Assembly (NCBI GenBank): GCA_016705125.1
Contig: JADIYW010000036.1
Coordinates: forward strand, 147,195 to 211,194
DNA from: Bacteroidota bacterium
Lineage (GTDB): Bacteria; Bacteroidota; Bacteroidia; Chitinophagales; JADIYW01
Length of the DNA: 64,000 nucleotides
Direction: 5' to 3'
The notes under the pieces were generated by a model, which was not told where the DNA came from, did not search any database, and worked only from the letters and a program-made list of their open reading frames with translations. The translations under genes were made by a program, and so were the position numbers. Shown in pieces: positions 6,700 to 40,608 of the stretch (position 1 is its first letter; each line of letters opens with the position of its first letter).

Positions 6700-6780
6700 A
6701 AACTTAATTAAACATTTGTTTATTATTAAAGTGTTTCATTTAGGCAACAATTCCTTTTCTTTACAAAAATAATTTAGTTA

Positions 6781-7536
6781 ATGGCTTTTGCAGTAAAAGA
6801 AAAAGGGGGATTTAAATTAATCGACGAGGGAGAAGGCGAACCACTTATACTATTGCATGGATTATTTGGCGGCTTAGCTAATTTTGACACCGTAGTAAGC
6901 TATTTTTCCAAAAATTACAGAACAATCGTTCCAATACTTCCACTTTACGACTTGCCTATTAGAGAAACAACCGTAATAGGTTTGGTTGATTATTTGAAAA
7001 AATTAATTTCACATTTAGAATTAAAGGAGATAAACCTACTTGGCAATAGCCTAGGAGGCCATGTAGCGTTGGTATATACTTTAGAAAATTTATCAAATGT
7101 AAAATCACTAATCCTAACGGGTAGTTCGGGGCTTTATGAAAAAGCCTTTGGAGATACAATTCCAAAAAGAGGTGATTATGATTATTTAAAAGAAAAAACA
7201 GAACAAACGTTTTACAACCCCAAAATTGCTACAAAAGAACTTGTTGATGAAATCTTTGAAACCGTTTCAGACAGAGAAAAAGCAATAAGAGTAATATCAA
7301 TGGCTAAATCTGCGGTTAGACATAATTTGTCAGAAGAATTGAATCAGATAAATTGTCCCACCTTTTTAATTTGGGGAATAAATGACACAATAACTCCGCT
7401 TTATGTGGGCGAGGAATTTAAACGGCTAATAAATGGAGCTCAATTGGTTACCATCGACAAATGTGGACATGCACCGATGATGGAGCATCCCGAAACGTTT
7501 AATAAACTTTTAGCCGAATTTTTACGTTCCATATAA
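6781..7536 (+). CDS. Alpha/beta-fold hydrolase
   Basis: 251-aa ORF with an HG oxyanion motif (LLHGLFGG), a nucleophile elbow GNSLGG and a C-terminal CGHAPMMEHP. Confidence 0.8.
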   Translation: MAFAVKEKGGFKLIDEGEGEPLILLHGLFGGLANFDTVVSYFSKNYRTIVPILPLYDLPIRETTVIGLVDYLKKLISHLELKEINLLGNSLGGHVALVYTLENLSNVKSLILTGSSGLYEKAFGDTIPKRGDYDYLKEKTEQTFYNPKIATKELVDEIFETVSDREKAIRVISMAKSAVRHNLSEELNQINCPTFLIWGINDTITPLYVGEEFKRLINGAQLVTIDKCGHAPMMEHPETFNKLLAEFLRSI

Positions 7537-7539
7537 TAA

Positions 7540-8202
7540 ATGTTTGCTAACCAATATATCGACAATTCATTTCCTCACTTAAAAAGTAGTGACACTATTG
7601 CTTTTGCTTTAGATTTAATGGAGGAAAATGGCATTCATTTTTTGCCAGTAGTAAAAAATGGAAAATATATAGGAATGGCCACTGAGAGCATTCTATATGA
7701 ACATCCCAATTCAAGCATTGAATTAGGCACTATTGACCTTCCATTTGAGAAAGCAAGTTGCGGTTATATGGAGCATTTATTTATGGTACTAAAAGAAATG
7801 ACAAAAAATAAATTGTCAATTCTTCCAATTTTAAATGAGAAAAAAAAGTTTTTGGGTACTGCTACAGCCGCTAAAATAATAGATGTATTTGCCAACAACT
7901 CTTCCATTGAAGACCCAGGTGGTATTTTGGTAATTGAAACCGAATATCGCGATTATTCACTTACAGAAATTTCTAAAATTGTTGAATCAGACGGCGCATT
8001 AATTTTACATTCCTATGTGTCACAAATCCCTAAATCTTCTAGGATTCTAGTTACCATCAAAACCAACAAGACAGACATTTCACCCATTATTCAAAGTTTT
8101 GAACGATATAATTACGAAATAAAAGCAGCATTCAACAAATCTATTATTGATAATCAATTGAAAGAAAGACTTGATGGATTACTCATGTATTTAAATATAT
8201 GA
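7540..8202 (+). CDS. CBS-domain protein
   Basis: 220-aa ORF with tandem CBS-like segments (HFLPVVKNGKYIGM, LSILPILNEKKKFLG). It holds the conserved position upstream of nadK seen in Bacteroidota. Confidence 0.7.
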   Translation: MFANQYIDNSFPHLKSSDTIAFALDLMEENGIHFLPVVKNGKYIGMATESILYEHPNSSIELGTIDLPFEKASCGYMEHLFMVLKEMTKNKLSILPILNEKKKFLGTATAAKIIDVFANNSSIEDPGGILVIETEYRDYSLTEISKIVESDGALILHSYVSQIPKSSRILVTIKTNKTDISPIIQSFERYNYEIKAAFNKSIIDNQLKERLDGLLMYLNI

Positions 8203-8234
8203 TAAATACGAATATTTCTTCATAATTTTAGCCA

Positions 8235-9650
8235 GTGCAATTGATCGTCATTTTTAGAAAAATAATTTTACTGTCACTAGTTTTGGTTTTTTTTGAAGGA
8301 AAAAGTCAAGACACACAAACCCCTGTAACTATCAGGCAAATTACAATTGAAGGAAACAAACATACAAAAGAACCAATAATTTTAAGAGAATTATCCTTTA
8401 ATGAAGGCGACACAATTAGTGGTGAAATGTTATCTCATAAAATTGAAAAAAGTAGAACAAACCTAATCAACTTAAACCTTTTTGGAAAAATCGTTTTTAA
8501 TATAAAAAATTGGGAAAACGACAGTTTAGATATCGTAATAAGCTTAACCGAACGCAATAGGTTTAAGTTTGCACCAATATTTAATTTGGCAGATCGAAAT
8601 TTTAACATTTGGTGGACCGACCAAAATCGAAGCTTTAAAAGGGTTCAAGGAGGTGCTTTAATTCGATTTAATAACGCTTTTGGGCTCAATCACACCATAA
8701 TAGGGACAGCCACTTTTGGTTTTGCTCAAATATTTGGTTTAGAATATCGAATGCCTTACATAAATAAATCAAAAACACTTGGTGCTCAATACATCTTTGA
8801 GTTTTCGCAAAGTAAGCAAGTTCAATATGGAACCACCAATGATAAGCAAGATTTTTTTGAAGGGGAGAAATTTGTAAATAGAAAAATTGAATTGGGCACT
8901 AAATTAGTTTTAAGACCAAAAATTCACAATACAAATACATTTACTGCCAGCTATTTACATTATGAAGTAGATAATACTTTAGCCAATCAACACCCAACTT
9001 ATTTATTAAATGGTCGCACCACCGTAAATTTTTTCCAAATAGGATACATGTATGAAATTGATTTAAGAGATTTTAGATATTTTCCAAAAAAAGGGCTTTA
9101 CTTTCGGGGCGAACTTCAAAGAAATGGATTCGGAATTTTTAAAAATGATATTAATCTTACTCGATTTAGTTTGTCGCTAAGCAAATATGAACAAATTGGA
9201 AAATCTCAAAAACATTTATTTAGTCATGCCGCCAAAATAATGCTTTCAGGACCCGAGTATCAACCATATGTGATTCAACGAGGAATGGGTTTTAAACAAG
9301 ACTTTGTGCGTGGCAACGAACTATTTCAAATTGATGGACAACGGTTTTTACTAATTAAAAATGAATATAAATATGCCCTTTTAGATGTAAAACTTAATTA
9401 TTTGAAAAAATTAAAAGGCAAAAAGTTGGGCTATATGCCATTATCATTATACTTGGGTGGTCATTTCGATTGTGGGGTTGTAACAGACAAAGCTAATAGT
9501 TCAACAAATTCGCTCAGAAACAAATTAATTTATGGATATGGAATCGGCTTAAATATGGTAACCTTCTACGACAAAGTTTTACGTTTAGAATATTCATTCA
9601 ATCAAGACTTTAATAAAGGATTTTATATACATTTTGAAGTTCCGATTTAA
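8235..9650 (+). CDS. Omp85/BamA-TamA-family outer-membrane protein (POTRA plus beta-barrel)
   Basis: 471-aa ORF with a GTG start and a signal peptide. It has a POTRA-like IRQITIEGNKHTKEPIILRELSFNEGD and a C-terminal beta-barrel with alternating aromatic residues. Confidence 0.7.
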   Translation: MQLIVIFRKIILLSLVLVFFEGKSQDTQTPVTIRQITIEGNKHTKEPIILRELSFNEGDTISGEMLSHKIEKSRTNLINLNLFGKIVFNIKNWENDSLDIVISLTERNRFKFAPIFNLADRNFNIWWTDQNRSFKRVQGGALIRFNNAFGLNHTIIGTATFGFAQIFGLEYRMPYINKSKTLGAQYIFEFSQSKQVQYGTTNDKQDFFEGEKFVNRKIELGTKLVLRPKIHNTNTFTASYLHYEVDNTLANQHPTYLLNGRTTVNFFQIGYMYEIDLRDFRYFPKKGLYFRGELQRNGFGIFKNDINLTRFSLSLSKYEQIGKSQKHLFSHAAKIMLSGPEYQPYVIQRGMGFKQDFVRGNELFQIDGQRFLLIKNEYKYALLDVKLNYLKKLKGKKLGYMPLSLYLGGHFDCGVVTDKANSSTNSLRNKLIYGYGIGLNMVTFYDKVLRLEYSFNQDFNKGFYIHFEVPI

Positions 9651-9741
9651 TTCAAAAAAACGCAAAATGATAAAAAGAAATTTCTAATAGGATTTTTAAT
9701 AAAAGGAATAGTAAATTAGCAAATAAATAAAGGCTTAAAAA

Positions 9742-10623
9742 ATGAACATTGGCATATATAGCAGGTTGTTGAAAAAAGAACATCGTCCATTTATTCAAGA
9801 ATTGTTTAAATTATTGGCTGAAAAAAATTACAATATTTTCATTTATGATGAGTATCTAAAGTCATTAAAAACAGAACTAAAATTTCTATCTCAATACGAC
9901 GCTTTCGCCACTTATGAAGACGTAAAAAAGTTAGAATTAGATCTCCTAATTTCTCTTGGCGGTGACGGCACCTTACTGGATACTGTAGGCTTGGTTAGGG
10001 ATAGCGGCATACCTGTGGCGGGTGTAAATATGGGAAGACTTGGTTTTTTAGCAGATATTCACAAAGAAGAAATTTCAAGTTTAATAAATGCAATAGAACA
10101 AAATACATATACAATCGAAGATCGTTCATTAATACATATAGAAACAAACAAACCACTATTTGGTGATAATAATTTTGGATTAAATGAATTCTCGATACTA
10201 AAAACAGAATCTTCTTCAATGATTACCATTCATGTTTACCTTAATGGAGAATTTTTATCTACCTATTGGGCAGATGGATTAATCGTAGCCACTCCTACTG
10301 GTTCCACTGCCTATTCATTAAGTTGTGGCGGACCAATTATTTTCCCCGATGCTGGCAATTTTGTACTTACACCCATTGCTCCACACAATCTAAATGCCCG
10401 TCCGATAGTAATTCCTGACAATACCGTGGTTTCTTTTGAAGTAGAATGTAGGAGTAAATATTTTTTGTGTGCCATTGACTCGAGAAATAAAAAGGCGGAC
10501 AAGTCGTTCCAAATTGCTATCCGAAAAGAGCAATTTCCTTTTAAATTGTTTCGAATGCCAGAAAATCATTATCTAAAAACCCTACGTGAAAAGCTAAATT
10601 GGGGGGAGGACGCAAGAAATTAA
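9742..10623 (+). CDS. nadK: NAD kinase
   Basis: 293-aa ORF with GGDGT (SLGGDGTLL), the NE motif and TPTGSTAYSLSCGGPI, which together form the NAD-kinase signature. Confidence 0.9.
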   Translation: MNIGIYSRLLKKEHRPFIQELFKLLAEKNYNIFIYDEYLKSLKTELKFLSQYDAFATYEDVKKLELDLLISLGGDGTLLDTVGLVRDSGIPVAGVNMGRLGFLADIHKEEISSLINAIEQNTYTIEDRSLIHIETNKPLFGDNNFGLNEFSILKTESSSMITIHVYLNGEFLSTYWADGLIVATPTGSTAYSLSCGGPIIFPDAGNFVLTPIAPHNLNARPIVIPDNTVVSFEVECRSKYFLCAIDSRNKKADKSFQIAIRKEQFPFKLFRMPENHYLKTLREKLNWGEDARN

Positions 10624-10701
10624 AAGCCTAAATTAGAATTTATAAAGGTTTTTTAACTTTTGACATTTAATACCAATAGTTTATATTTCACGTTATTTCG
10701 C

Positions 10702-10709
10702 TATCTTTG
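10702..10709 (+). promoter_or_regulatory. Bacteroidota -7 promoter box TATCTTTG (TAnnTTTG)
   Basis: Exact match to TAnnTTTG. It lies inside the 5' part of the tracked ORF 10660..11580, which argues for a downstream start codon. Confidence 0.35.
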
Positions 10710-10734
10710 CCATTCGTTTAAAAAAAATACGGAT

Positions 10735-11580
10735 TTGGACCGTTTATTTAAAAATAGATACATATTGTTTGCTTGCCTTTTTTTCATGGGTTTTTCATTA
10801 AATGCCCAAGAAAAAGAGTTCGGTGTATTTGTGGGCGGATCGAATTATTTTGGCGATTTAAATCCCAGTTATTCCTTCAAAGAAACAAGACCAGCAACAA
10901 GTATTTTTTATCGTTACAATTTTAATCCCCGTATGTCATTTCGGGCAGCAATGGGTTATTATTGGGTAACTGCATCCGATAACAAACAAAAAAAATACCC
11001 TTACCTACTCGCTCGGAATCTGAATTTTTCAAATCAAATAATAGAAGTTTCGGGTACTTATGAACTGAATTTTTTCAAATTTAATCCATTAAAGAAAAAA
11101 GATCGTTTTTCGCCTTACATATTTGTTGGAGCGAGTATTTTTTATTTCCAACCAACCACTAAATTTAATGGCAAAAAATATAGGCTACAAGAAATAGGAA
11201 CAGAAGGACAAAAAGGATATGATGAAGAAGTAGATAATGGATACAATACCTTTTCATTGGCAATTCCTTTTGGAGGTGGTATAAAATGGGCAATAAATAA
11301 AAAATTATCTCTTAATGTAGAATTTAATAGTCGAAAAACATTTACCGATTGGCTTGATGATGTCAGCGGCAATTATCCCGACCCTGAATCATTGTTTTTA
11401 GTGGATGAAAATGGCTCAATTGCATCTATTTTAAGCGACCGCTCTCCAGAAACAGGCATAGACCCAATTGCTGTAAATGGCAAACAAAGAGGAACTAGCA
11501 AGGATAAAGATCGTTTCAATTTTTTTGGAATAGGACTAACCTATACCATTTTTAATCCTAAATGCCCAAGACCATATTAA
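10735..11580 (+). CDS. Outer-membrane beta-barrel protein (DUF6089-like)
   Basis: Same frame as ORF 10660..11580. The start is moved to the in-frame TTG at 10735, giving the signal peptide (M)DRLFKNRYILFACLFFMGFSLNAQ. The mature part begins EFGVFVGGSNYFGDLN. The start codon remains uncertain. Confidence 0.6.
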   Translation: MDRLFKNRYILFACLFFMGFSLNAQEKEFGVFVGGSNYFGDLNPSYSFKETRPATSIFYRYNFNPRMSFRAAMGYYWVTASDNKQKKYPYLLARNLNFSNQIIEVSGTYELNFFKFNPLKKKDRFSPYIFVGASIFYFQPTTKFNGKKYRLQEIGTEGQKGYDEEVDNGYNTFSLAIPFGGGIKWAINKKLSLNVEFNSRKTFTDWLDDVSGNYPDPESLFLVDENGSIASILSDRSPETGIDPIAVNGKQRGTSKDKDRFNFFGIGLTYTIFNPKCPRPY

Positions 11581-32426: not shown

Positions 32427-33451
32427 TTCTATTTTTTCTTTTAAACGATTTAAAATGTAGGTATTCAACGATTTGCCAAAGAATGAAAGCATTAAAAAGA
32501 ATAAACCTATTCCAATAAAATATTGGAATTTGCTTACATAGTCAAGGAATAATTTTTCCTTGTACTTTCGTTTCTCCTGTTTGTCAATTGCATCAACAAC
32601 CGCTTTTTTAGTGTTTTTTCTTCCTGTTAAGTGAAATATTCACCGCCACCAGCTTTGGCTATTTCCTTTAATTTTTTCATTTATAATAGAAATTACTTCC
32701 TTTCCATTTTCATCCTTTTAAACTCTATAAAATTATTGTTATCATCATACTCTGGAATTGTGCTTCCTTTCGTTTCTCCTACACCGATAGTGTAAATTCT
32801 TGTTCCATTTTTTAAAAGCTGCCTTTGCCTTTTTAAGCGCTTCTTTATTAAAAGTTTCTCCATCCGAAATTAATAATAAGGTTTTAAAATTTTTATCTCC
32901 ACTTACAAATGCATGCTCTGACACGTCAATGGCAGCTCCAATATCGGTTCCTTGGTTCTGAATTAGGGAGGGAACTGCATTTTCTAAATACATATTAAAT
33001 GCACTATAATCAACGGTTAGCGGCATTTGCAAATAAGCATTTCCCGCAAATACAACAAAACCGACACGATGTCCATGAAACTGATCTATTATGCTAGAAA
33101 CCAACGCCTTTGCCCGTTCAAGTCTGTTAGGTTTAATATCTTCCGCCATCATACTTTTGAAATATCTAAGGCAATTATCACATCAACACCTGTATTGGCA
33201 ATCGTTGATTCTTTTTACCCATTCGAGGATTTGCTAATCCTAAAATAAAAAATATAAGAGCAAGTAGAAACAAAATTGTCCTTATAAATAAGGTTTTATC
33301 TTTTTTCCAATAAATAGATTCTCACCAAATCTTTGTCACCAATAGCCTCTAATTTCAAACGCTGTCTTCGCAAAAAATCGAAAGACACCCACCATAGTAT
33401 TGGAATTAACCAAAGAAGTACAAAATATGCCGGTTTTTCGAATTGCATCAT
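32427..33451 (-). pseudogene. batB: BatB-like von Willebrand factor A (vWA) membrane protein, frameshifted
   Basis: The N-terminus MMQFEKPAYFVLLWLIPILW starts at 33451. The vWA core is in ORF 32745..33152 (...RVGFVVFAGNAYLQMPLT...LLLISDGE). The C-terminal TM segment is in a further frame. The 3' boundary is approximate. Confidence 0.6.
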
Positions 33452-34422
33452 AGTGTATTTGGTAAAAGATATTTTAATTAAAAACAATAAAATCAAACAA
33501 AAATACCCAAACCCACAAAAGGAAAAAAATAATTCTTCTTTTGTTCATAGCTTTCCATTTTAATTTTAGATTTTTCTAGATTGTCGATATTGTGATATAT
33601 TTCTTAAGCTTATTGCCATCAGTTGCTCTAAAATATTTTCCATTAGTTGATTCAGCCACTTTTTTTAAAAGTTCTTCATCTATTTGCACATCCATTTTTC
33701 TATAATATATTTCCCCAAAAGCGTCCATTTCAGGATAAAGTGCTTTTCCCTTCGAACCTATACCAATGGTATATACCCTTACTCCGTTTGATTTTGCTAA
33801 TTCTATCGCCGAAATAGGATCGATATATCCTGCATTATTAATTCCATCCGTCATCAAAATCACTACTTTGCTTTTCGCTTTGCTATCCACTAAGCGGGTA
33901 CTGCAGTAGCCAAACCCATACCAATAGCGGTGCCATCATCCACTATCCTACTTTGTATATTTCGAAATAAGTTTATCAATACATCATGGTCGGTTGTAAT
34001 GGGACACTGGGTAAAACTTTCGCCAGCAAAAACAACCAATCCAATTCTATCATTTTGGTCGGCCGGCGATAAAACTTTTTAGCCACCTGTTTAGCTGCTT
34101 CCAACCTGTCAGGTTTAAAATCTTTAGCCAACATACTACTAGAAATATCGAGAGACAGCACAATATCAATGCCTTCTGAATTTACACTATTGCCACTCAT
34201 CGATTTTTGCGGCCTTGCCAAGGCGATTACCATCAACACAAAAGCCATTAACCATAGGACATCGTGTATTTTCAACAACTTAAATTTCCAGCTACTAGTA
34301 TCACTTTGAAATTGTTTTATATTCGATAATTTTAGCTGAATTCCACTTGTTGCTTTGGTTTTATTTAATTTATATAAATAAAAAGCACTAAAATAAGCAA
34401 CAGAAAAACCATGGATGGGCAA
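33452..34422 (-). pseudogene. batA: BatA-like vWA membrane protein, multiple frameshifts
   Basis: ORF 33976..34422 contains ...ALARPQ...EGIDIVLSLDISSSMLAKDFKPDRLEAAK. ORF 33576..33890 contains KVVILMTDGINNAG...VYTIGIG. The intervening DRIGLVVFAGESFTQCP-type segment is recoverable only by switching frames. Boundaries are approximate. Confidence 0.65.
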
Positions 34423-34440
34423 AACTAAAATTACTAAACA

Positions 34441-35343
34441 CTTTGATTCTCATTTAAGTCGTTAATAAATTTAATTCCATCGGTAATTATCGATAGATGA
34501 TACTCTTCTTCAGGTAATGCTTTTGCAAATTTTACTTTATCAGACAAATTCAATAATCCTTTAATTCTTCCAAGTTATTTTGACCAAAACCTCTTTTTTC
34601 AAAATCAAACAATATATCTGTTGAAGACCGTTCAATTGTTTTTATTGACTTCGCCTCTTTTAGATATATTCTTATAATATCCGATACTTGAGTATAAAAA
34701 TATTTCTCCCCTTTTGTAAGCCACGATTTTTCAATAGACAATGCTTCAAATGCATTAATTGCTTTTTGATAAGGAGAAATTAAAATTGAATCTTTTTTAG
34801 ATTCTATTTTAACTGATTTTTTTCTAATCGTAATAAAATAAACGATTACAGCCATTATTGAAAAAATAATTAAGCCCAATAAAACCCATTTTACCCATCC
34901 GTATTTAGGCATTTCAACACCAATTGGCGATTTTATTACTTTCAATCCTTTGGTTGTGTCTACCGAATTGTCCCTATAAAAACAGGTATTTTGTTTGTTT
35001 TTAGATAACTAGAAGAAGAATCATTTGTTTGTGAAAAATTAAAAGACGGAATTTCTTGCCATCCTGTATCATAGCAAGTAAGAATTACTCTTTGTGTGTA
35101 TTTATTAAAATTACCCTGAATGCTTGTATCTATTTTATCCAAATAAACGGTATCAAAACTTGTGTTATTCATTTTAAAATCCGTCCAAGTCAATGACTCA
35201 TTTTTTGGCACTTCGGCCGTAAAGGTAAGTGTTATCCAGTCTGCAATAAGGTGATTAGCGGTATCCAACTTTACCCTAATCGTTTGACTATCTACCATTA
35301 AGGGTATCATTATCAAAAATAATATGGCGTACAATTTAATCAA
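34441..35343 (-). pseudogene. Conserved Bat-operon membrane protein (between DUF58 and batA), at least 2 frameshifts
   Basis: ORFs 34960..35343 (signal peptide) and 34550..34945 (central TM), plus a C-terminal tail LNLSDKVKFAKALPEEEY... in a third frame that ends at TAG 34441..34443. Confidence 0.5.
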
Positions 35344-36247
35344 ACCCTATTTTTGAAAAATTTAATTAATGGTTTTATATAATCTTCTTTAGTAGAAATG
35401 GAAATGGTATCTGCTCCGGCCTTTAAAAATGCATTTTTAAACAAATTAGTGTTGAAAATGAACTGCTTATGATAGTCATATCTTGTTTGAGCATTTGAAG
35501 TATCTATCCATCTTTTTTGACCAGACTCCACATCTAAAATTTCGATTAGGCCAACATCTGGAAGTGTTGCATCTATAGGGTCAAATACTTGAATCCCTAT
35601 CATATCATGTTTTCTTTTAGAATGCGTTAATTGTTTTTCAAAATCAGATGTAAGAAAGTCTGATAAAATAAATACAATGCTTTTTTCTTCACCACATTAT
35701 TTAAAAACTCTAAAGAATTTGCCAAATTGGTTGTCGTTCCTTTGCTTTCGATATTTAACAACTCTCTTATAATCAACAAAATATGTCCTTTCCCTTTTTT
35801 CGGAGGAATATATTTTTCAACTTTATCGCTAAATAACAATAAACCAACTTTGTCATTATTTGCAATTGCTGAAAAAGATAAAACAGCACACAATTCGGTA
35901 ATAAGTTGATTCTTTTGTCTACGAATAGAGCCTAAAAAAGAGAAGCACTTATATCTACCATCAAAACAACGGTTAGTTCTCTTTCCTCCTCAAAAACTTT
36001 AACAAAAGGCGAATTTAATCGGGCAGTTACATTCCAATCGATGTTTTTTATGTCATCACCAAAGGCATAATCTCTTACCTCACTAAAAGACATGCCTTTT
36101 CCCTTAAATGCAGTATGATATTCGCCTGCAAATAAATGATTAGACAATCCTTTAGATTTTATCTCAATCTTTCTTACGCCCTTTAAAAGTTCTTTAAATC
36201 CACTAATAAATTTTAATAATGCAACAAATACAACGATTACAGTCCAT
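35340..36247 (-). pseudogene. DUF58-family protein (MoxR-associated), fragmented
   Basis: Three fragments: 35932..36147 (GEYHTAFKGKGMSFSEVRDYAFGDDIKNIDWNVTAR), 35627..35893 and 35340..35603. The ATG at 36247 is in yet another frame. Confidence 0.7.
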
Positions 36248-36248
36248 A

Positions 36249-37239
36249 TTAAGGCACATTTACCTTGTTTAGAATTTGAGAAATAATATCATCACTATTT
36301 ATATTTTCTGCTTCAGCTTCATAAGTAATCCCTATTCTATGGCGAAGCACATCATAGCAAATAGCACGAACATCTTCTGGAATTACGAAACCTCTTTTTT
36401 GCATAAATGCATGCGCCTTTGCTGCCATAGCTAAATTTATAGAAGCACGTGGCGAACCACCATAGCTTATTAGGGGCATTAAATCTTTCAATCCATAATT
36501 TTCTGGCCTACGACTACAAAAACCAAATGCAATATATACTGTTCAATTTTTTCATCCATATACACTTTTTTACCAAAGTTCTTGCGGCAATTAATTGTTT
36601 AGCATTTACTACAGGATTTATTTTACTTTCTATACCCAAAACATTTTGTCTCATAATTTGTCGCTCTTCTTCAAACTCTGGATAGCTAATTTTTATTTTT
36701 AGCATAAACCTATCCACCTGAGCTTCAGGCAAAGGATAAGTTCCCTCTTGTTCGATTGGATTTTGAGTGGCCATAACCATAAAAGGTTCTTCTAACTTAA
36801 AAGTTTCATTACCAATAGTAATTACCTTTTCTTGCATAGCTTGCAATAATGCACTTTGTACTTTGGCTGGAGCTCGGTTTATTTCGTCTGCTAAAATAAA
36901 ATTTGAAAATATAGGTCCTTTTCTAACTTCGAAATTACCCTTTCCTTGATTATAAATCATGGTGCCAATAATATCAGCAGGCAATAAATCTGGGGTAAAC
37001 TGAATTCTACTAAAACCAACAGAAACAGCATCTGAGAGTGATTTAATGGCTAAAGTTTTGGCCAATCCGGGTACGCCTTCCAATAAAATATGGCCCTGAC
37101 ATAATAGTGCCAACAAAAGTCTATCGGTCATGTATTTCTGACCAATAATATTTTTTCCAACTTCCTCCTTTATTAAATCTAAAAAACTACTCTCTTGTTT
37201 TATTTGATCATTTAAGATTCCAATTTCTATATTGTCCAT
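36249..37239 (-). pseudogene. moxR: MoxR-family AAA+ ATPase, 2 frameshifts near the C-terminal third
   Basis: ORF 36514..37239 has Walker A (GVPGLAKT) and Walker B (LADEINRA). The C-terminus is ORF 36249..36491. The joining segment VKKVYMDEKIEQYILHLVF needs a frame change at an A6 run (plus-strand T6 at 36566..36571) and another about 50 nt later. Confidence 0.85.
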
Positions 37240-37367: not shown

Positions 37368-38762
37368 ATGAAAATCAAATCTTTACTCCTAATCGTTATT
37401 TTTTGTTTTTTGCAAAAAGAAATTTCTGCTCAAGCAAGTTCCAAAATTTTAAAAATTGACAAAAGACTCCGGTCTTTTATCGTTTATAAACCATCAAATT
37501 ATAGCGAAGGAATGCCTTTGGTGCTAAATTTACATGGCTTTACCTTAACAGGAAGTGCCCAAATGTCGTATACCAATTTCAATAGATTTGCTGATTCCGT
37601 GGGTTGCATGGTTGTTTACCCAACAGGCATTCAGAAAAGATGGGGTGCTGGCACTTTTATGGGCGTCGATAACAAGGTTGATGATGTGAGCTTTTTGGGT
37701 CAATTGATCGATTATATGGCCATTAATTATGCAGTTGATTTAACAAGAGTATATTCAATTGGATATTCGGCTGGGGGATTTATGAGTTATAGATTAGCCT
37801 GTGATTTATCTGGTAGAATTGCTGCAATTAGTCCAGTTGCATCGAGCATGACTCAAGAAGTATTTAGCGATTGCAATCCAACAAGACGTATTCCGATATT
37901 GTGTATGAATGGCACTAGCGACCCAGTGGTAAGTTATTATGGTATTCCGGGGCAATTTCCATCTACAAAAAAAGTTGTTGAATTTTGGACTAAAGATAAT
38001 TTATGCGACCCAATTGTAATTGAAGATACCTTACCAAACCTTGCTGTAAATGACAATAGCAGAGTAACTAAAACAGTTTATCTGGGTTGTGGTGCGAATG
38101 CCCCATTTGAGTTTTATAAAATACTTTATGGCGGTCATACCTGGCCAGGAGCTAAGCCTTTTGGAATATTAGGCAATACCAATCAGGACATCAACGCAAA
38201 CAAAATAATATGGGATTTCTTATCGCAATACGATATTCCTCAAGAAATGGTTTGCGTCAAACCTAGCAATTTATCCAGCAATATCAACGACTGCAGCGCT
38301 ATTCTATCATGGAATTCTGTAGGAGGCACAACAGGTTATCGAATTTCAATTATAGACAATACTGCTAAAGAAATGAAGATATATCAATCAAATACTAATT
38401 CACTTTCTATTCCTACAATTAGTGGCAACAATTACAGTTGGGGAGTTGCAGCCAATTGTGATGGCAATTTTTTCAACTTAGCTGAAGGCCCTTCTTTTAA
38501 TTCATGTGGAAATGGGATTTCAAATAAACTAGCAAAAGACAATTCTTTTAACTTGTTTCCAAACCCAACACGAGACATATTGTATTTTCAATTTGACAAA
38601 ATAATCGGTAATGAATTGGTTCAAATCGTTGATATTGTTGGGCGAAACATAAAAGAATTCAATTTAATCGAAGGACAAAATCAAATTCTTGTTGCTGATT
38701 TAGAAGTTGGAATGTATTTTATCAAAACTTCCTTTGGAAGTTTTGGATTTGTTAAGCAATAA
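37368..38762 (+). CDS. Secreted esterase of the PHB-depolymerase/LpqC family with a T9SS C-terminal sorting domain
   Basis: 464-aa intact ORF with a signal peptide, LNLHGF..., a GYSAGG nucleophile elbow and a middle Fn3-like segment. The C-terminal FNLFPNPTRDILYFQF...VGMYFIKT... matches the type-A Por secretion tail. Confidence 0.8.
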   Translation: MKIKSLLLIVIFCFLQKEISAQASSKILKIDKRLRSFIVYKPSNYSEGMPLVLNLHGFTLTGSAQMSYTNFNRFADSVGCMVVYPTGIQKRWGAGTFMGVDNKVDDVSFLGQLIDYMAINYAVDLTRVYSIGYSAGGFMSYRLACDLSGRIAAISPVASSMTQEVFSDCNPTRRIPILCMNGTSDPVVSYYGIPGQFPSTKKVVEFWTKDNLCDPIVIEDTLPNLAVNDNSRVTKTVYLGCGANAPFEFYKILYGGHTWPGAKPFGILGNTNQDINANKIIWDFLSQYDIPQEMVCVKPSNLSSNINDCSAILSWNSVGGTTGYRISIIDNTAKEMKIYQSNTNSLSIPTISGNNYSWGVAANCDGNFFNLAEGPSFNSCGNGISNKLAKDNSFNLFPNPTRDILYFQFDKIIGNELVQIVDIVGRNIKEFNLIEGQNQILVADLEVGMYFIKTSFGSFGFVKQ

Positions 38763-38793
38763 AAAAAGTCATGCATAAATACATGACTTTTTT
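38761..38793. terminator. Bidirectional rho-independent terminator (A7, then GTCATG-N8-CATGAC, then T6)
   Basis: A perfect 6-bp stem flanked by an A-run and a T-run. It lies directly after the esterase stop on the plus strand and 3 nt after the tRNA-like gene on the minus strand. Confidence 0.7.
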
Positions 38794-38796
38794 AAG

Positions 38797-38951
38797 CTGT
38801 AAGGGAAGGAGTCGAACCTCCAAAGAGCGATTAGGAATCAGACAAAAGTTGGTGGTCAACCCCTGCCCATTAAAGGGCTCTATCCAATCTTTATTTCGTG
38901 ATCTCCACCCCCGAGACAAGAGGGCATGGCTGCCAGTTTCATCACCTCACA
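38797..38951 (-). ncRNA. Unclassified 155-nt tRNA-like RNA (acceptor, D-like, anticodon-like GUC and T arms) with an ~86-nt insertion between the anticodon arm and the T arm
   Basis: A GC-enriched island in an AT-rich spacer. The acceptor pairs UGUGAGG (38951-38945) with CCUUACA (38804-38798). The anticodon-like arm is CCCUC-UUGUCUC-GGGGG (38924-38908). The T arm is GGAGG-UUCGACU-CCUUC (38821-38805). It has its own promoter and terminator. It is not a canonical tRNA and no known family was recognised. Confidence 0.5.
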
Positions 38952-38966
38952 ATAATAAGAACGCCA

Positions 38967-38997
38967 CAAAGGTAATGAATATATCTATTTCTTGCAA
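38967..38997 (-). promoter_or_regulatory. Bacteroidota-type promoter TTG-N20-TACCTTTG for the tRNA-like RNA
   Basis: On the minus strand, TTG (38997-38995), a 20-nt spacer, then TACCTTTG (38974-38967). The -7 box ends 15 nt upstream of the first acceptor nucleotide. Confidence 0.45.
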
Positions 38998-39106
38998 TAT
39001 GCTTAATAAATATTTAATATTATTATCATAAATTCAAAAATAAAAGAACATTGTTGACAAAAAGAAAAAATTAAGGACTAAAAAGCAGAATAATTTTGCG
39101 AATAAA

Positions 39107-39520
39107 TCAATGTGGCAATTTATCCTTTAACAAACCATAGCAAAAGGTACCCAATAATGCACCAGCCAAAACCACCAAAAAAGGATAAAAACCAGCGCCT
39201 ATTAAAATAAATATTGGACCTGGACATGCACCAACCAAAGCCCAGCCTAATCCAAAAATAATACCACCAATAATATACCGTTTCCAGCCTTTTTCTTTTT
39301 CTTCTACTATAATTTCATTGCCATCTATTGATTTAAGTCGAATACGTTTAATTATTTGAATAAAAATAATCCCGAGCACCACTGCGCTTCCTATAATGCC
39401 ATACATGTGAAAAGATTCAAAACGAAACATCTCATATATTCTATACCATGACAAAACTTCTGCTTTTGTTAAAATTACCCCAAACAAGAATCCAAGTAAA
39501 AGAAATTTAAAATACTTCAT
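39107..39520 (-). CDS. YeeE/YedE-family sulfur-compound transport protein (small half)
   Basis: 137-aa polytopic protein. GACPGP and GxxxG-rich helices are typical of the YeeE/YedE (DUF395) family. Confidence 0.75.
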   Translation of the reverse strand: MKYFKFLLLGFLFGVILTKAEVLSWYRIYEMFRFESFHMYGIIGSAVVLGIIFIQIIKRIRLKSIDGNEIIVEEKEKGWKRYIIGGIIFGLGWALVGACPGPIFILIGAGFYPFLVVLAGALLGTFCYGLLKDKLPH

Positions 39521-39521
39521 T

Positions 39522-40067
39522 TTAAAAAATAAATGGGATGATGAAATGAGTCATAATCAGGCCTCCTATAAAAAAGCCAATTACAGCAATTAATGATGGC
39601 AACTGTAAATTGGATAAACCACTAATAGCATGTCCTGAGGTACACCCATTAGCATACCTTGTTCCAAAGCCAATTAAAAAACCTCCAACTAATAAAATTA
39701 AAATGCCTTTTATTGATTTTAATCCATCTAAGATAAAAGAAGGTAAGTAGTTATTTTGATCAATACCAATTTCTTTTAAGGCTTCATTGGTTTTAGCCGA
39801 TAATAAAATATCATGAGTTTCCGTTAAATAATTATATGCAAAAAATCCTCCAAGTATAGTACCTAAAACAAAAACAAGGTTCCAAATATCTTGTTTCCAA
39901 TCAAAATTAAAAAAAGAAGAAAATTTTCCGGCACCACCGATGGCACACATGGTTCTTAAATTTGAACTAAGCCCAAATTTTTTCCCAAAATATAATAACA
40001 AAAACAAAATAACACTAATGGCAGGACCAGCAACATACCAAGGCCAAGGAGAAAGTAAAAATTCCAT
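39522..40067 (-). CDS. YeeE/YedE-family sulfur-compound transport protein (large half)
   Basis: 181-aa polytopic protein with an NGCTSGH motif. Its stop is 1 nt from the start of the next gene. Confidence 0.75.
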   Translation of the reverse strand: MEFLLSPWPWYVAGPAISVILFLLLYFGKKFGLSSNLRTMCAIGGAGKFSSFFNFDWKQDIWNLVFVLGTILGGFFAYNYLTETHDILLSAKTNEALKEIGIDQNNYLPSFILDGLKSIKGILILLVGGFLIGFGTRYANGCTSGHAISGLSNLQLPSLIAVIGFFIGGLIMTHFIIPFIF

Positions 40068-40070
40068 AAT

Positions 40071-40379
40071 TTAATAATAAATTTCCCAAGCTAGCATACC
40101 GCCTTTCAAATTAAACAACTTTGAAAAACCATTATTCGCCATAAATGCACAAGCTTTTCCGCTTCTATTGCCACTCCTACAATACATGAAATAGGATTTA
40201 TCCTTATCCAATTCCATAATTTTATCAGGAAAATTTGGACTAAAGGCATTGATCAAAATATGCCCTTCAATTGAGTTTTCAGCTTCTTCATCCGGTGTTC
40301 TAACGTCAATTAATATAGCATCATTTGTTGACTCCAGCAATTCTTTAAATTCTTCAGGCTCTAAATCTTCGTACATTTT
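40071..40379 (-). CDS. Rhodanese-domain sulfurtransferase
   Basis: Contains LIDVRTPDE and the active-site loop CRSGNRS. The start is set at the internal ATG (MYEDLEPEEF), and the longer tracked N-terminus looks non-coding. Confidence 0.8.
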   Translation of the reverse strand, partial: KMYEDLEPEEFKELLESTNDAILIDVRTPDEEAENSIEGHILINAFSPNFPDKIMELDKDKSYFMYCRSGNRSGKACAFMANNGFSKLFNLKGGMLAWEIYY

Positions 40380-40608
40380 AAAATATTTATAGTATAAAAA
40401 TACAATTATATTTAAAAAACAGTCTTTAAATATAAAGCATAAAGCAAAGTTTAACAAATTTAAAATAAAATAAAATTATTAGTCGTTCATTTTCAACTAT
40501 TAGCAAAAATAAGACATTAAAAAATTCAACCAAAACTCAAAAAAAACTTTTAAATGCATTAAAAATTAAAATAAAATCATACCTTAGAAAATAAGAATTT
40601 AGAGTTTA

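Follow-up and report, generated by a model that had tools for sequence, protein, structure and literature searches.

A class II tRNA-like RNA with an enlarged variable arm in Bacteroidota and uncultivated phages

Introduction

What is an RNA gene that has almost every landmark of a transfer RNA (tRNA) and carries some 86 nucleotides (nt) between its anticodon-type arm and its T arm? The question is raised by a 155-nt locus in a 64,000-nt stretch of DNA (hereafter the window) from a Bacteroidota bacterium of the order Chitinophagales, contig JADIYW010000036.1, positions 147,195 to 211,194. An earlier reading of the letters alone, referred to below as the sequence-only reading, had proposed a tRNA with a novel insertion, a tRNA-derived regulatory or scaffold RNA, or a disrupted tRNA(Asp)-like pseudogene. 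Comparison with homologues supports the reading as a tRNA with a novel insertion or a tRNA-derived scaffold RNA, and the pseudogene is rejected by conservation and covariation. The locus is a real, conserved RNA gene, far beyond chance, and the window RNA belongs to the class II tRNAs, its variable arm being hypertrophied; it is not a type I tRNA into which foreign DNA has been inserted. As to its role, the preferred reading is that the gene is functional and encodes a class II tRNA of non-canonical type, which would be charged and would serve as a non-decoding carrier or adaptor; taken as a whole package, this reading is judged to be evenly balanced between right and wrong.

The RNA and its cloverleaf

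The gene occupies positions 38951-38797 of the minus strand, from U1 to the discriminator G73, with C74 at 38796. Its 5' half reads UGUGAGG-UG-AUG-AAACUGGCAGC-CAU-G-CCCUC-UUGUCUC-GGGGG, and its 3' half, after the 86-nt insert, reads GGAGG-UUCGACU-CCUUC-CCUUACA-G. The 5' strand of the acceptor stem, UGUGAGG (38945-38951), pairs with the 3' strand CCUUACA (38798-38804) through six Watson-Crick pairs and one G-U. Between them lie the D arm (38926-38942), the anticodon-type arm CCCUC/GGGGG (38908-38924), whose loop UUGUCUC (38919-38913) places GUC at 38917-38915, U37 at 38914 and C38 at 38913, and the T arm GGAGG-UUCGACU-CCUUC (38805-38821); the gene ends in G73 and C74 (38796-38797) with no CCA encoded. 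These elements, together with U8 and the ~86-nt spacing of the anticodon and T arms (38907-38822), agree with the sequence-only reading, apart from the D stem, which had been drawn with 4 base pairs (bp) and has 3 (AUG/CAU, 38942-38940 with 38928-38926), closing the loop AAACUGGCAGC that holds A14, A15, G18 and G19.

The 86-nt variable arm (38822-38907, minus strand) was mapped to window coordinates from covariation and RNAalifold. It starts with a base stem (38906-38903 with 38827-38824) and a 3-bp stem (38898-38896 with 38830-38828), continues through the internal loop AAUAAAG/UCCUA (within 38822-38907) into a long stem (38888-38883 with 38842-38837), and ends in the hairpins GCCC-UUUAAU-GGGC (38878-38865) and GGGG-UUGA-CC-A-CC (38863-38851). 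Among the three insert hairpins drawn earlier, GCCC-UUUAAU-GGGC is thereby supported and the other two fall away: GAUC/GAUU is paired in 31.8% of cells with no covariation, and GGUGG/CCACC shows no covariation, its observed value being that of shuffled alignments.

Homologues in Bacteroidota and phages

Homologues were collected by several scans. The 3' 21-mer of the window RNA, searched against IMG/VR contigs, found 14 viral contigs, each encoding a homologue over the full length (158-172 nt), with the 5' end, the TGGCA D loop, the hairpin CCCNC-YYGUCUC-GNGGG and blocks inside the insert in common. A degenerate D-loop/anticodon-arm pattern gave at least 120 matches in a viral scan. A scan of one genome per species also gave at least 120, and all 120 of the matches listed come from Bacteroidota; most belong to Chitinophagales, Cytophagales and Saprospirales, a few to Flavobacteriales or Bacteroidaceae. 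Cultured carriers include Chitinophaga pinensis, Dyadobacter psychrophilus, Spirosoma luteum, Algoriphagus alkaliphilus and Persicobacter diffluens. The yield was 87 plus 135, that is 222 distinct homologues of 94-194 nt, which stem, among the matches listed, from at least 115 loci in Bacteroidota genomes and over 150 contigs of uncultivated viruses. No blastn match to the window RNA or to one phage copy was found in GenBank phage genomes, and a full-text literature search found no description of this RNA.

The closest relatives were located through the YeeE protein encoded next to the RNA. In ten of ten independent, near-identical metagenome-assembled contigs the RNA's 156 nt are identical, and where relatives have a YeeE of 96% or 78% identity, the RNA differs at four positions only (~98% identity), two of which turn a G-U into an A-U in a predicted stem of the insert. 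Among these relatives the similarity ends exactly after ...CUUACAGC, and the flanks diverge.

Covariation in every stem

A hand-drawn cloverleaf with its insert stems was scored on alignment A2, which holds 146 non-redundant representatives (<90% identity). Standard pairs fill 95.6% of cells compared with 80.1% in shuffled alignments, and the covariation score of 0.399 (0.138 shuffled) was reached by none of 500 shuffles and fell to 0.08-0.10 when the partners were slid by 1-3 columns. The acceptor stem is paired in 99.9% of cells, with both-sided changes in six of seven pairs, and the T stem in 99.7%, with both-sided changes in four of five; pairing in these two helices was required at extraction, so the percentages are inflated while the covariation is not. 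The D stem (97.7% paired, with AU/UA/GC/CG exchanges) and the variable-arm stems were not imposed by the search, nor were the identities of the covarying pairs. The base stem of the variable arm is paired in 100% of cells, with both-sided changes in three of four pairs, and the next long stem in 83.7% despite being aligned by sequence only. The search pattern fixed four of the five pairs of the anticodon stem, which is 99.9% paired; position 4 of this stem covaries (UG 106, UA 19, AU 12, CG 6, GC 2). The homologue and covariation test that the sequence-only reading had pointed to thus came out in favour of structure, all four tRNA stems and the insert stems covarying in the 146 homologues.

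RNAalifold, run on 41 members of the window subtype, recovered the acceptor, anticodon and T stems independently, with compensatory changes in 22 of 42 predicted pairs. Inside the insert its predicted helices are stems of 4 bp (at the base), 3 bp and 9 bp, together with two hairpins, one variable and one conserved (GGG-UYGA-CC(A)C). The insert fold accordingly consists of the base stem, the 3-bp stem, a conserved internal loop, a stem of 6-9 bp and a three-way junction, and larger members keep the internal loop as G-R-A-U-A-A-A-S opposite C-U-A-A-S. A kissing dimer at the conserved GGUYGACC loop was considered and dropped, the GGG-UYGA-CC(A)C hairpin from RNAalifold being simpler and the variable fourth base being uncompensated. 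The single-sequence minimum free energy (MFE) of the window RNA is unremarkable (z = -0.64) and its structure is not the cloverleaf, the comparative structure having -33.0 kcal/mol compared with -47.7 for the MFE; energy alone is therefore uninformative here.

Viral variants elaborate this fold in two further ways. A hairpin between GAAA and UGGCA of the D loop occurs in 28 of 83 viral variants (e.g. L024, L026, L037, L042) and carries a second GUCUC motif in 12 of these 28. The tips of distal variable-arm hairpins in viral copies (e.g. L026, L046, L050, L084) are very often palindromic (UUGCAA, CCGGCCGG, GCGCGC, CUAGCUAG), which could reflect loop-loop dimerisation or a DNA-level site.

A class II tRNA body

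The tertiary nucleotides of a tRNA are retained throughout the family. U8, G9, A14, A15, G18, G19, G53-C61, U54, U55, C56 and A58 are invariant in all 146 members, and U48, the partner in the R15-Y48 tertiary pair, is present in 145; one search pattern included TGGCA of the D loop, whereas the T loop, U8, A14/A15 and U48 were left free. The D arm, with its 3-bp stem and the enlarged loop RAAY-UGGCAKA, is the same as in ordinary phage tRNA-Leu genes. Across the family the base-paired variable arm, which emerges between positions 45 and 48, ranges from ~25 to ~110 nt: the smallest members have a 5-bp stem capped by a loop of 11-13 nt, within which larger ones add helices.

Members of 94-96 nt are called tRNA-Asp(GUC) by ARAGORN. 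L081, one of these short members, matches the Rfam tRNA model over its full length with 41.7 bits (threshold 29) in sensitive mode, a match that is missed with default filters. ARAGORN made no tRNA or tmRNA (transfer-messenger RNA) call in the 64-kb window, Rfam 15 at gathering thresholds gave no match across the whole window, and the sensitive mode applied to 38700-39100 returned only E>3 noise on the terminator, the RNA staying unmatched even at E<=10. ARAGORN detected the tmRNA genes that lie close to the RNA in the phage contigs L029 (5947-6345) and L283 (5027-5396), so the tool works on such material. The earlier judgement that the architecture fits no class thus holds in so far as the window copy escapes ARAGORN and Rfam, with no full-length match to a known family, and fails in so far as the RNA has the structure of a class II tRNA and ARAGORN gives the short members of the family as tRNA-Asp(GUC). 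A tmRNA was rejected in view of the missing tag reading frame, pseudoknots and ARAGORN tmRNA call in the window, and a tRNA with a group I intron was rejected as well: the insert has 86 nt instead of the more than 200 of such introns, lies between the anticodon and T arms rather than in the anticodon loop, and has no Rfam intron match.

The gene also resembles its tRNA neighbours at its ends. G73 and C74 are present in 146 of 146 members, and N73-C74 without CCA is likewise the end of 689 of the 783 ordinary tRNA genes (88%) at these loci. Most of the 14 viral homologues found with the 21-mer sit in arrays of up to 23 tRNA genes, where the RNA begins 4-6 nt after the preceding tRNA. In bacterial copies, TAnnTTTG-like boxes lie 15-50 nt upstream of many members, which implies leaders in need of removal, and A occupies -2 and -4 in 88-89% of 91 copies. 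From the leaders, the array spacing and the N73-C74 end it is assumed, as the economical option, that the RNA is processed like the neighbouring tRNAs by RNase P cleavage, 3' trimming and CCA addition.

An unusual anticodon loop

Positions 34-38 were fixed in two of the search patterns and free in the 21-mer scan and in a scan that left the anticodon loop open. The latter returned 119 matches, among which the loop Y-N-G-U-C-U-C occurs in 100, an Asn-type GUUUC in five and single deviations in four; two were left unclassed by eye, and the other eight are ordinary tRNA-Leu-type genes or chance pattern matches. U37 is found in 105 of the 111 loops of the GUC or GUU type, and members have U (79%), C (14%) or G (7%) at position 33. 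The control was the set of ordinary tRNAs from the loci that carry the family, with a purine at 37 in 773 of 785 (98.5%) and U33 in 771 of 785 (98.2%). The U at position 37, which had been flagged as odd from the window copy, is therefore a hallmark of the family. At the acceptor end U1-A72 occurs in 145 of 146 members, G2-C71 in 146 of 146 and U3-A70 in 141 of 146, while acceptor pairs 4-7 covary freely.

The family has the Asp identity elements G73, G34, U35, C36, C38 and G2-C71. Canonical tRNA-Asp genes are also present at 25 or more phage loci and at one Dyadobacter locus, mostly with G1-C72 and with a CUGUCAC loop, so the family RNA is an extra species there. Viral contigs yielded no GUA or GUG versions and the GUU version in seven contigs only, and a Q-family ('GUN') series was rejected on account of the absent GUA and GUG versions. 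The GUU sister group belongs to the large phage contigs L275, L281, L283, L304, L323, L339 and L340 and shares the D arm, U1-A72, G73, U37 and C38, with a short variable arm; ARAGORN calls its members tRNA-Asn of 89-98 nt, and a normal 76-nt tRNA-Asn is also present in L283 and L323.

Genomic setting and integration at the 3' end

An Lrp/AsnC-family regulator gene lies upstream of and divergent from the RNA in 74 of the 115 bacterial loci among the matches listed (L152-L271), often with sufB and sufC beyond it, and trmB, for an m7G46 methyltransferase, follows directly downstream in eight bacterial loci; TrmB, SufB and SufC are names which we take from reading the sequences rather than from a profile scan. 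The Lrp/AsnC synteny across orders argues for old, vertical inheritance, and in this respect the family looks like an ancient, widespread gene of Chitinophagales, Cytophagales and Saprospirales. The same synteny suggests that the RNA is perhaps under amino-acid-responsive control. In the window lineage the RNA has moved next to rhodanese and YeeE. A Chitinophagales relative with a 72%-identical YeeE (L019), the closest one beyond the species group, has no RNA at the YeeE spot, which shows that the RNA is not tied to YeeE; a functional link to YeeE and rhodanese was rejected on this ground and in view of the Lrp/AsnC and suf genes near which most bacteria carry the RNA. Sulfur trafficking is involved in both recurrent contexts, through rhodanese and the YeeE halves in the window (39107-40457) and through the suf operon in most of the other genomes, which may be a coincidence.

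Copy number varies among the bacterial carriers. Two or more distinct copies occur at 18 bacterial loci, and Persicobacter diffluens (L244, 6436-7247) has five tandem intact copies at 172-nt spacing. Degenerate copies, damaged in their 5' halves, adjoin an intact one in L158 and L223. A contig end in L156 (6859-6950) joins an Illumina adapter (GTGCTCTTCCGATCT) to a partial RNA copy and is an assembly artefact in a public metagenome-assembled genome (MAG). In smaller phage contigs the RNA often lies between an open reading frame (ORF) of 170 amino acids (aa) and the terminase large-subunit gene. No specific conserved partner protein was found in phages, the recurrent neighbours being terminase, exonuclease, PhoH-like proteins and unknown ORFs.

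The 3' end of the gene is an attachment site. In one of the near-identical genomes (L008), a 4.7-kb integrative element (6727-11420) follows directly after the RNA, bounded by the 23-nt direct repeat GTTCGACTCCTTCCCTTACAGCT, which corresponds to the 3' half of the T loop, the acceptor strand and G73-C74 and lies at 38795-38817 (minus strand) in the window. The element opens with a tyrosine-integrase gene (Phage_integrase and SAM-like domains), and its other genes include an HTH_17 gene and several unknown ORFs. L004 retains a 1,051-bp AT-rich remnant (6727-7777, 20% GC) whose left end is that of the L008 element. To serve as an integration site at the 3' end is the classical behaviour of tRNA and tmRNA genes. 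No integrase similar to that of L008 was found beside the other family copies examined.

Proposed role and rival explanations

In the preferred reading the RNA would be transcribed from its own promoter, cut by RNase P at its 5' end, trimmed after G73-C74 and completed with CCA as in the neighbouring ordinary tRNAs, and its acceptor end and GUCUC loop would be recognised by a sequence-specific partner. Aspartate determinants are G73, G34, U35, C36 and C38, with G2-C71 as a minor one (PMC9976931), and serine identity is inferred from a long variable arm plus G73 (PMC5389517); given the Asp identity set and this serine rule, the RNA is most likely aminoacylated, probably with Asp as the first choice and Ser as the second. 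The fixed U37, the unfixed position 33, U1-A72 and the coexistence of canonical tRNA-Asp argue against a routine decoder, and the fixed G73 and acceptor pairs 1-3 are as expected if the 3' end is used. The RNA may therefore work apart from normal elongation as a dedicated aminoacyl-carrier or adaptor, and its partner would dock at the conserved base of the variable arm. A more far-reaching version is offered tentatively and with distinctly less confidence: Bacteroidota and phages would hold a dedicated non-decoding aminoacyl-tRNA, charged by the Asp or Ser rule, kept off the ribosome by U37, U1-A72 and a protein-docking variable-arm module, and feeding a tRNA-dependent reaction or signalling. 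If this is true, the functional class of tRNA would be new, on par with tRNA-Sec or the tRNA-Gly species of the cell wall, and an infecting phage would bring in a copy of its own.

Several observations weigh against the charged carrier or adaptor. Class II synthetases approach the tRNA from the variable-loop side, so that a large variable arm could hinder aspartyl-tRNA synthetase (AspRS). G1-C72 is strictly conserved in bacterial tRNA-Asp and helps to place the 3' end in AspRS (PMC9976931), whereas the family has U1-A72. GUCUC may instead be a motif for protein or RNA binding with no relation to Asp, and there exist both the rare GUUUC sister group and the second GUCUC in the D-loop hairpin of 12 phage variants. 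No partner protein was identified among the recurrent neighbours examined. Finally, acceptor and T-stem pairing was demanded at extraction, and most members were collected with patterns that fix parts of the D loop or the anticodon arm, so the invariance in these two regions is partly ascertainment; independent checks on this come from the viral 21-mer scan and the scan with a free anticodon loop.

The main rival, a possible but rather less probable explanation, is an uncharged tRNA mimic that acts as a regulator or decoy, in which the tRNA body would provide for stability and processing. A tRNA-binding protein, for instance a synthetase, a modification enzyme or an anticodon nuclease, would be titrated or guided by the GUCUC loop together with the variable-arm module, and the phages' own copy would manipulate the same target. 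Such a mimic would account for a loop motif that is fixed although U33 is not and position 37 is U, for the second GUCUC presented by the D-loop hairpin of 12 phage variants, and for the tolerated C36 to U change in the sister group. The presence of the RNA in hosts and phages, including small phages beside the terminase gene and outside tRNA arrays, fits it as well, and the divergent Lrp/AsnC-type regulator suggests regulated rather than constitutive expression. The strict G73 and acceptor pairs 1-3, as expected of an RNA that uses its 3' end, and the full set of tertiary nucleotides speak against an uncharged mimic, and no candidate target of a mimic was found. Unlikely, in turn, is a decoding missense tRNA that would be a substrate of seryl-tRNA synthetase, as allo-tRNAs are, and would insert low-level Ser, or another non-cognate residue, at GAC/GAU. 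Allo-tRNAs combine a long variable arm with G73 or U73, have GUC among their predominant anticodons and occur in bacteria and phages (PMC5389517), and the family has class II geometry, G73 and a place in phage tRNA arrays. Against decoding stand the fixed U37 and variable position 33, set beside 98% purine-37 and U33 in nearby decoders, an anticodon that is essentially fixed, unlike the diverse ones of allo-tRNAs, and a 7/5 branch rather than 8/4 or 9/3; vertical conservation across Bacteroidota orders would moreover imply constitutive Asp-to-Ser mistranslation as a core trait, an implication that seems improbable.

A platform for tRNA-dependent Asn synthesis, on which AspRS would charge the RNA, the amidotransferase GatCAB, reading U1-A72, would turn the Asp on this non-decoding carrier into Asn and the neighbouring AsnC-type regulator would exert control, is very improbable. 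U1-A72 gives amidation specificity and G1-C72 prevents amidation (PMC9976931), so the 145 of 146 members with U1-A72 would suit such a platform, as would the anticodon series limited to Asp and Asn and the Lrp/AsnC-family neighbour. However, gatCAB is missing from 12 of 14 surveyed Bacteroidetes genomes (PMC3927822), the Leu-type D loop has the extra nucleotides 20a/20b, a supernumerary D-loop base being an antideterminant for the amidotransferase (PMC9976931), the window copy has no AsnC neighbour, and phages have no evident need for the reaction. The remaining explanation, a dead or disrupted tRNA(Asp) that was hit by a mobile insertion or is a relic kept as an integration site, is effectively refuted. 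It could draw on the missing ARAGORN and Rfam calls for the window copy, the unremarkable single-sequence folding (z = -0.64), the attachment site at the 3' end and the degenerate neighbour copies in some genomes. A dead gene is contradicted by a sequence that stays identical or nearly so across strains and species while the flanks diverge, by compensatory changes in every stem of the 146 homologues, insert included, by its own putative promoter and terminator, and by up to five tandem intact copies.

Comparison with known RNAs

With the class II tRNAs (tRNA-Leu, -Ser and -Tyr; RF00005) the family shares the 7/5 branch, the 3-bp D stem, a stem-loop variable arm and the tertiary nucleotides, and with tRNA-Leu also the D loop GRAAYUGGCAKAC, which is found in ordinary phage tRNA-Leu genes. 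It differs in its anticodon GUC, which belongs to a class I tRNA family and not to Leu, Ser or Tyr, in U37, the unfixed position 33 and U1-A72, and in a variable arm of 25-110 nt, whose internal loop is conserved and which forms a three-way junction in the window copy. Normal class II variable regions reach ~20 nt. Bacterial tRNA-Asp(GUC) has in common with the family G73, G34, U35, C36, C38 and G2-C71 (PMC9976931); the family departs from it in U1-A72 instead of G1-C72, U37 instead of A37, and a class II body in place of the 4-5-nt variable loop. The canonical tRNA-Asp genes in the same phage loci, of 73-77 nt, have the CUGUCAC loop and mostly G1-C72.

Allo-tRNAs and selC-like tRNAs (Mukai et al. 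2017, PMC5389517) resemble the family in their long variable arm, G73 and occurrence in bacteria and phage tRNA clusters, and their anticodons, GUC being among the predominant ones, are mismatched to the likely charging identity (PMC5389517). They are built differently, with an 8/4 or 9/3 branch and a tRNA-Sec-like long D stem and tetraloop (PMC5389517) as opposed to 7/5 and a 3-bp D stem, their anticodons are diverse (35 codons, PMC5389517) while the family loop is fixed, and they have been reported from Clostridia, Proteobacteria and Acidobacteria (PMC5389517), whereas the family is confined to Bacteroidota and viral contigs among the matches listed.

The tRNA-like domain of tmRNA likewise has an acceptor stem and a T arm, undergoes tRNA-like processing, is encoded by a gene that integrases target and is carried by large phages. 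The family RNA has no reading frame, resume codon or pseudoknot series and has full D and anticodon arms, and the window RNA measures 155 nt in contrast to ~350-400 nt. YrlA and other bacterial Y RNAs also fuse a tRNA-mimicking module to another structured module and occur in bacteria and phages. YrlA reportedly ends in a Ro-binding stem that replaces the anticodon stem, whereas the ends of the family RNA form a true acceptor stem and its extra module replaces the variable loop; moreover, the window RNA has no Rfam match, and no Ro60 gene was noted nearby among the neighbours read. Species 1 and 2 of phage T4 (rnaC, rnaD) are stable RNAs of ~120-140 nt from a tRNA cluster that are matured together with tRNAs and have no assigned function. 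They are not known to have a host homologue, unlike the family, which is a vertically conserved host gene.

Significance

A class II body, the Asp identity set, U37 with U1-A72 and a variable arm of up to ~110 nt, present in host and phage, form a combination that is covered by no tested family. It shows that the variable arm of a tRNA can serve as an expansion site for a structured domain of ~100 nt, and it joins the Asp identity set to features almost never seen in ordinary decoding tRNAs, which poses the question of what use a cell has for a tRNA that is apparently chargeable yet not built for reading codons. Many uncultivated phages carry the RNA. As the window copy and most of the longer members tested are invisible to ARAGORN and Rfam, the gene is presumably unannotated in many genomes, and a covariance model of the family would improve the annotation of tRNAs, non-coding RNAs and prophage boundaries in Bacteroidota. 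Bench study is made possible by cultured carriers such as Chitinophaga pinensis, Dyadobacter, Spirosoma luteum and Persicobacter diffluens.

Signals and neighbours in the window

The RNA region stands out as a GC island (0.45-0.52 compared with 0.18-0.27 on both flanks), as the sequence-only reading had described together with the upstream TTG/TACCTTTG pair and a terminator 3 nt downstream, all of which were found in the window on the minus strand. Promoters of Bacteroidetes have the consensus TAnnTTTG. A box of this type, TACCTTTG, was read at 38967-38974, 16 nt upstream of the RNA, as the candidate -7 element, and TTG at 38995-38997, 20 nt further upstream, is a candidate -33 element by consensus-type evidence only. 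The short 5' leader at 38952-38966 would be removed by RNase P, the mature 5' end being placed by the acceptor pairing. On the 3' side, an intrinsic-terminator-like hairpin of 14 pairs followed by a T run (38762-38793) begins 3 nt beyond the RNA; 0.2 such sites are expected by chance across the region.

Upstream on the same strand lie a rhodanese gene and two YeeE/YedE half-genes, and the convergent neighbour encodes an esterase with a type IX secretion system (T9SS) sorting domain. The rest of the window is ordinary bacterial chromosome, with BamA-like, Dus, class II aminoacyl-tRNA synthetase, SHMT, Amt and ATP synthase genes. An ATG-initiated ORF of 86 aa on the plus strand (38771-39031) covers the entire RNA gene. 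In view of the RNA-type conservation, this ORF is almost certainly spurious, and gene callers could be misled by it.

Elsewhere in the window, positions 33158-36571 differ from a 99.1%-identical MAG contig (L001) by 21 single-base indels, all within 3.4 kb. The MoxR, DUF58 and VWA (Bat-like) genes are broken into ORF fragments of 60-148 aa in the window and are intact in L001, the indels being either a local assembly error or pseudogenisation.

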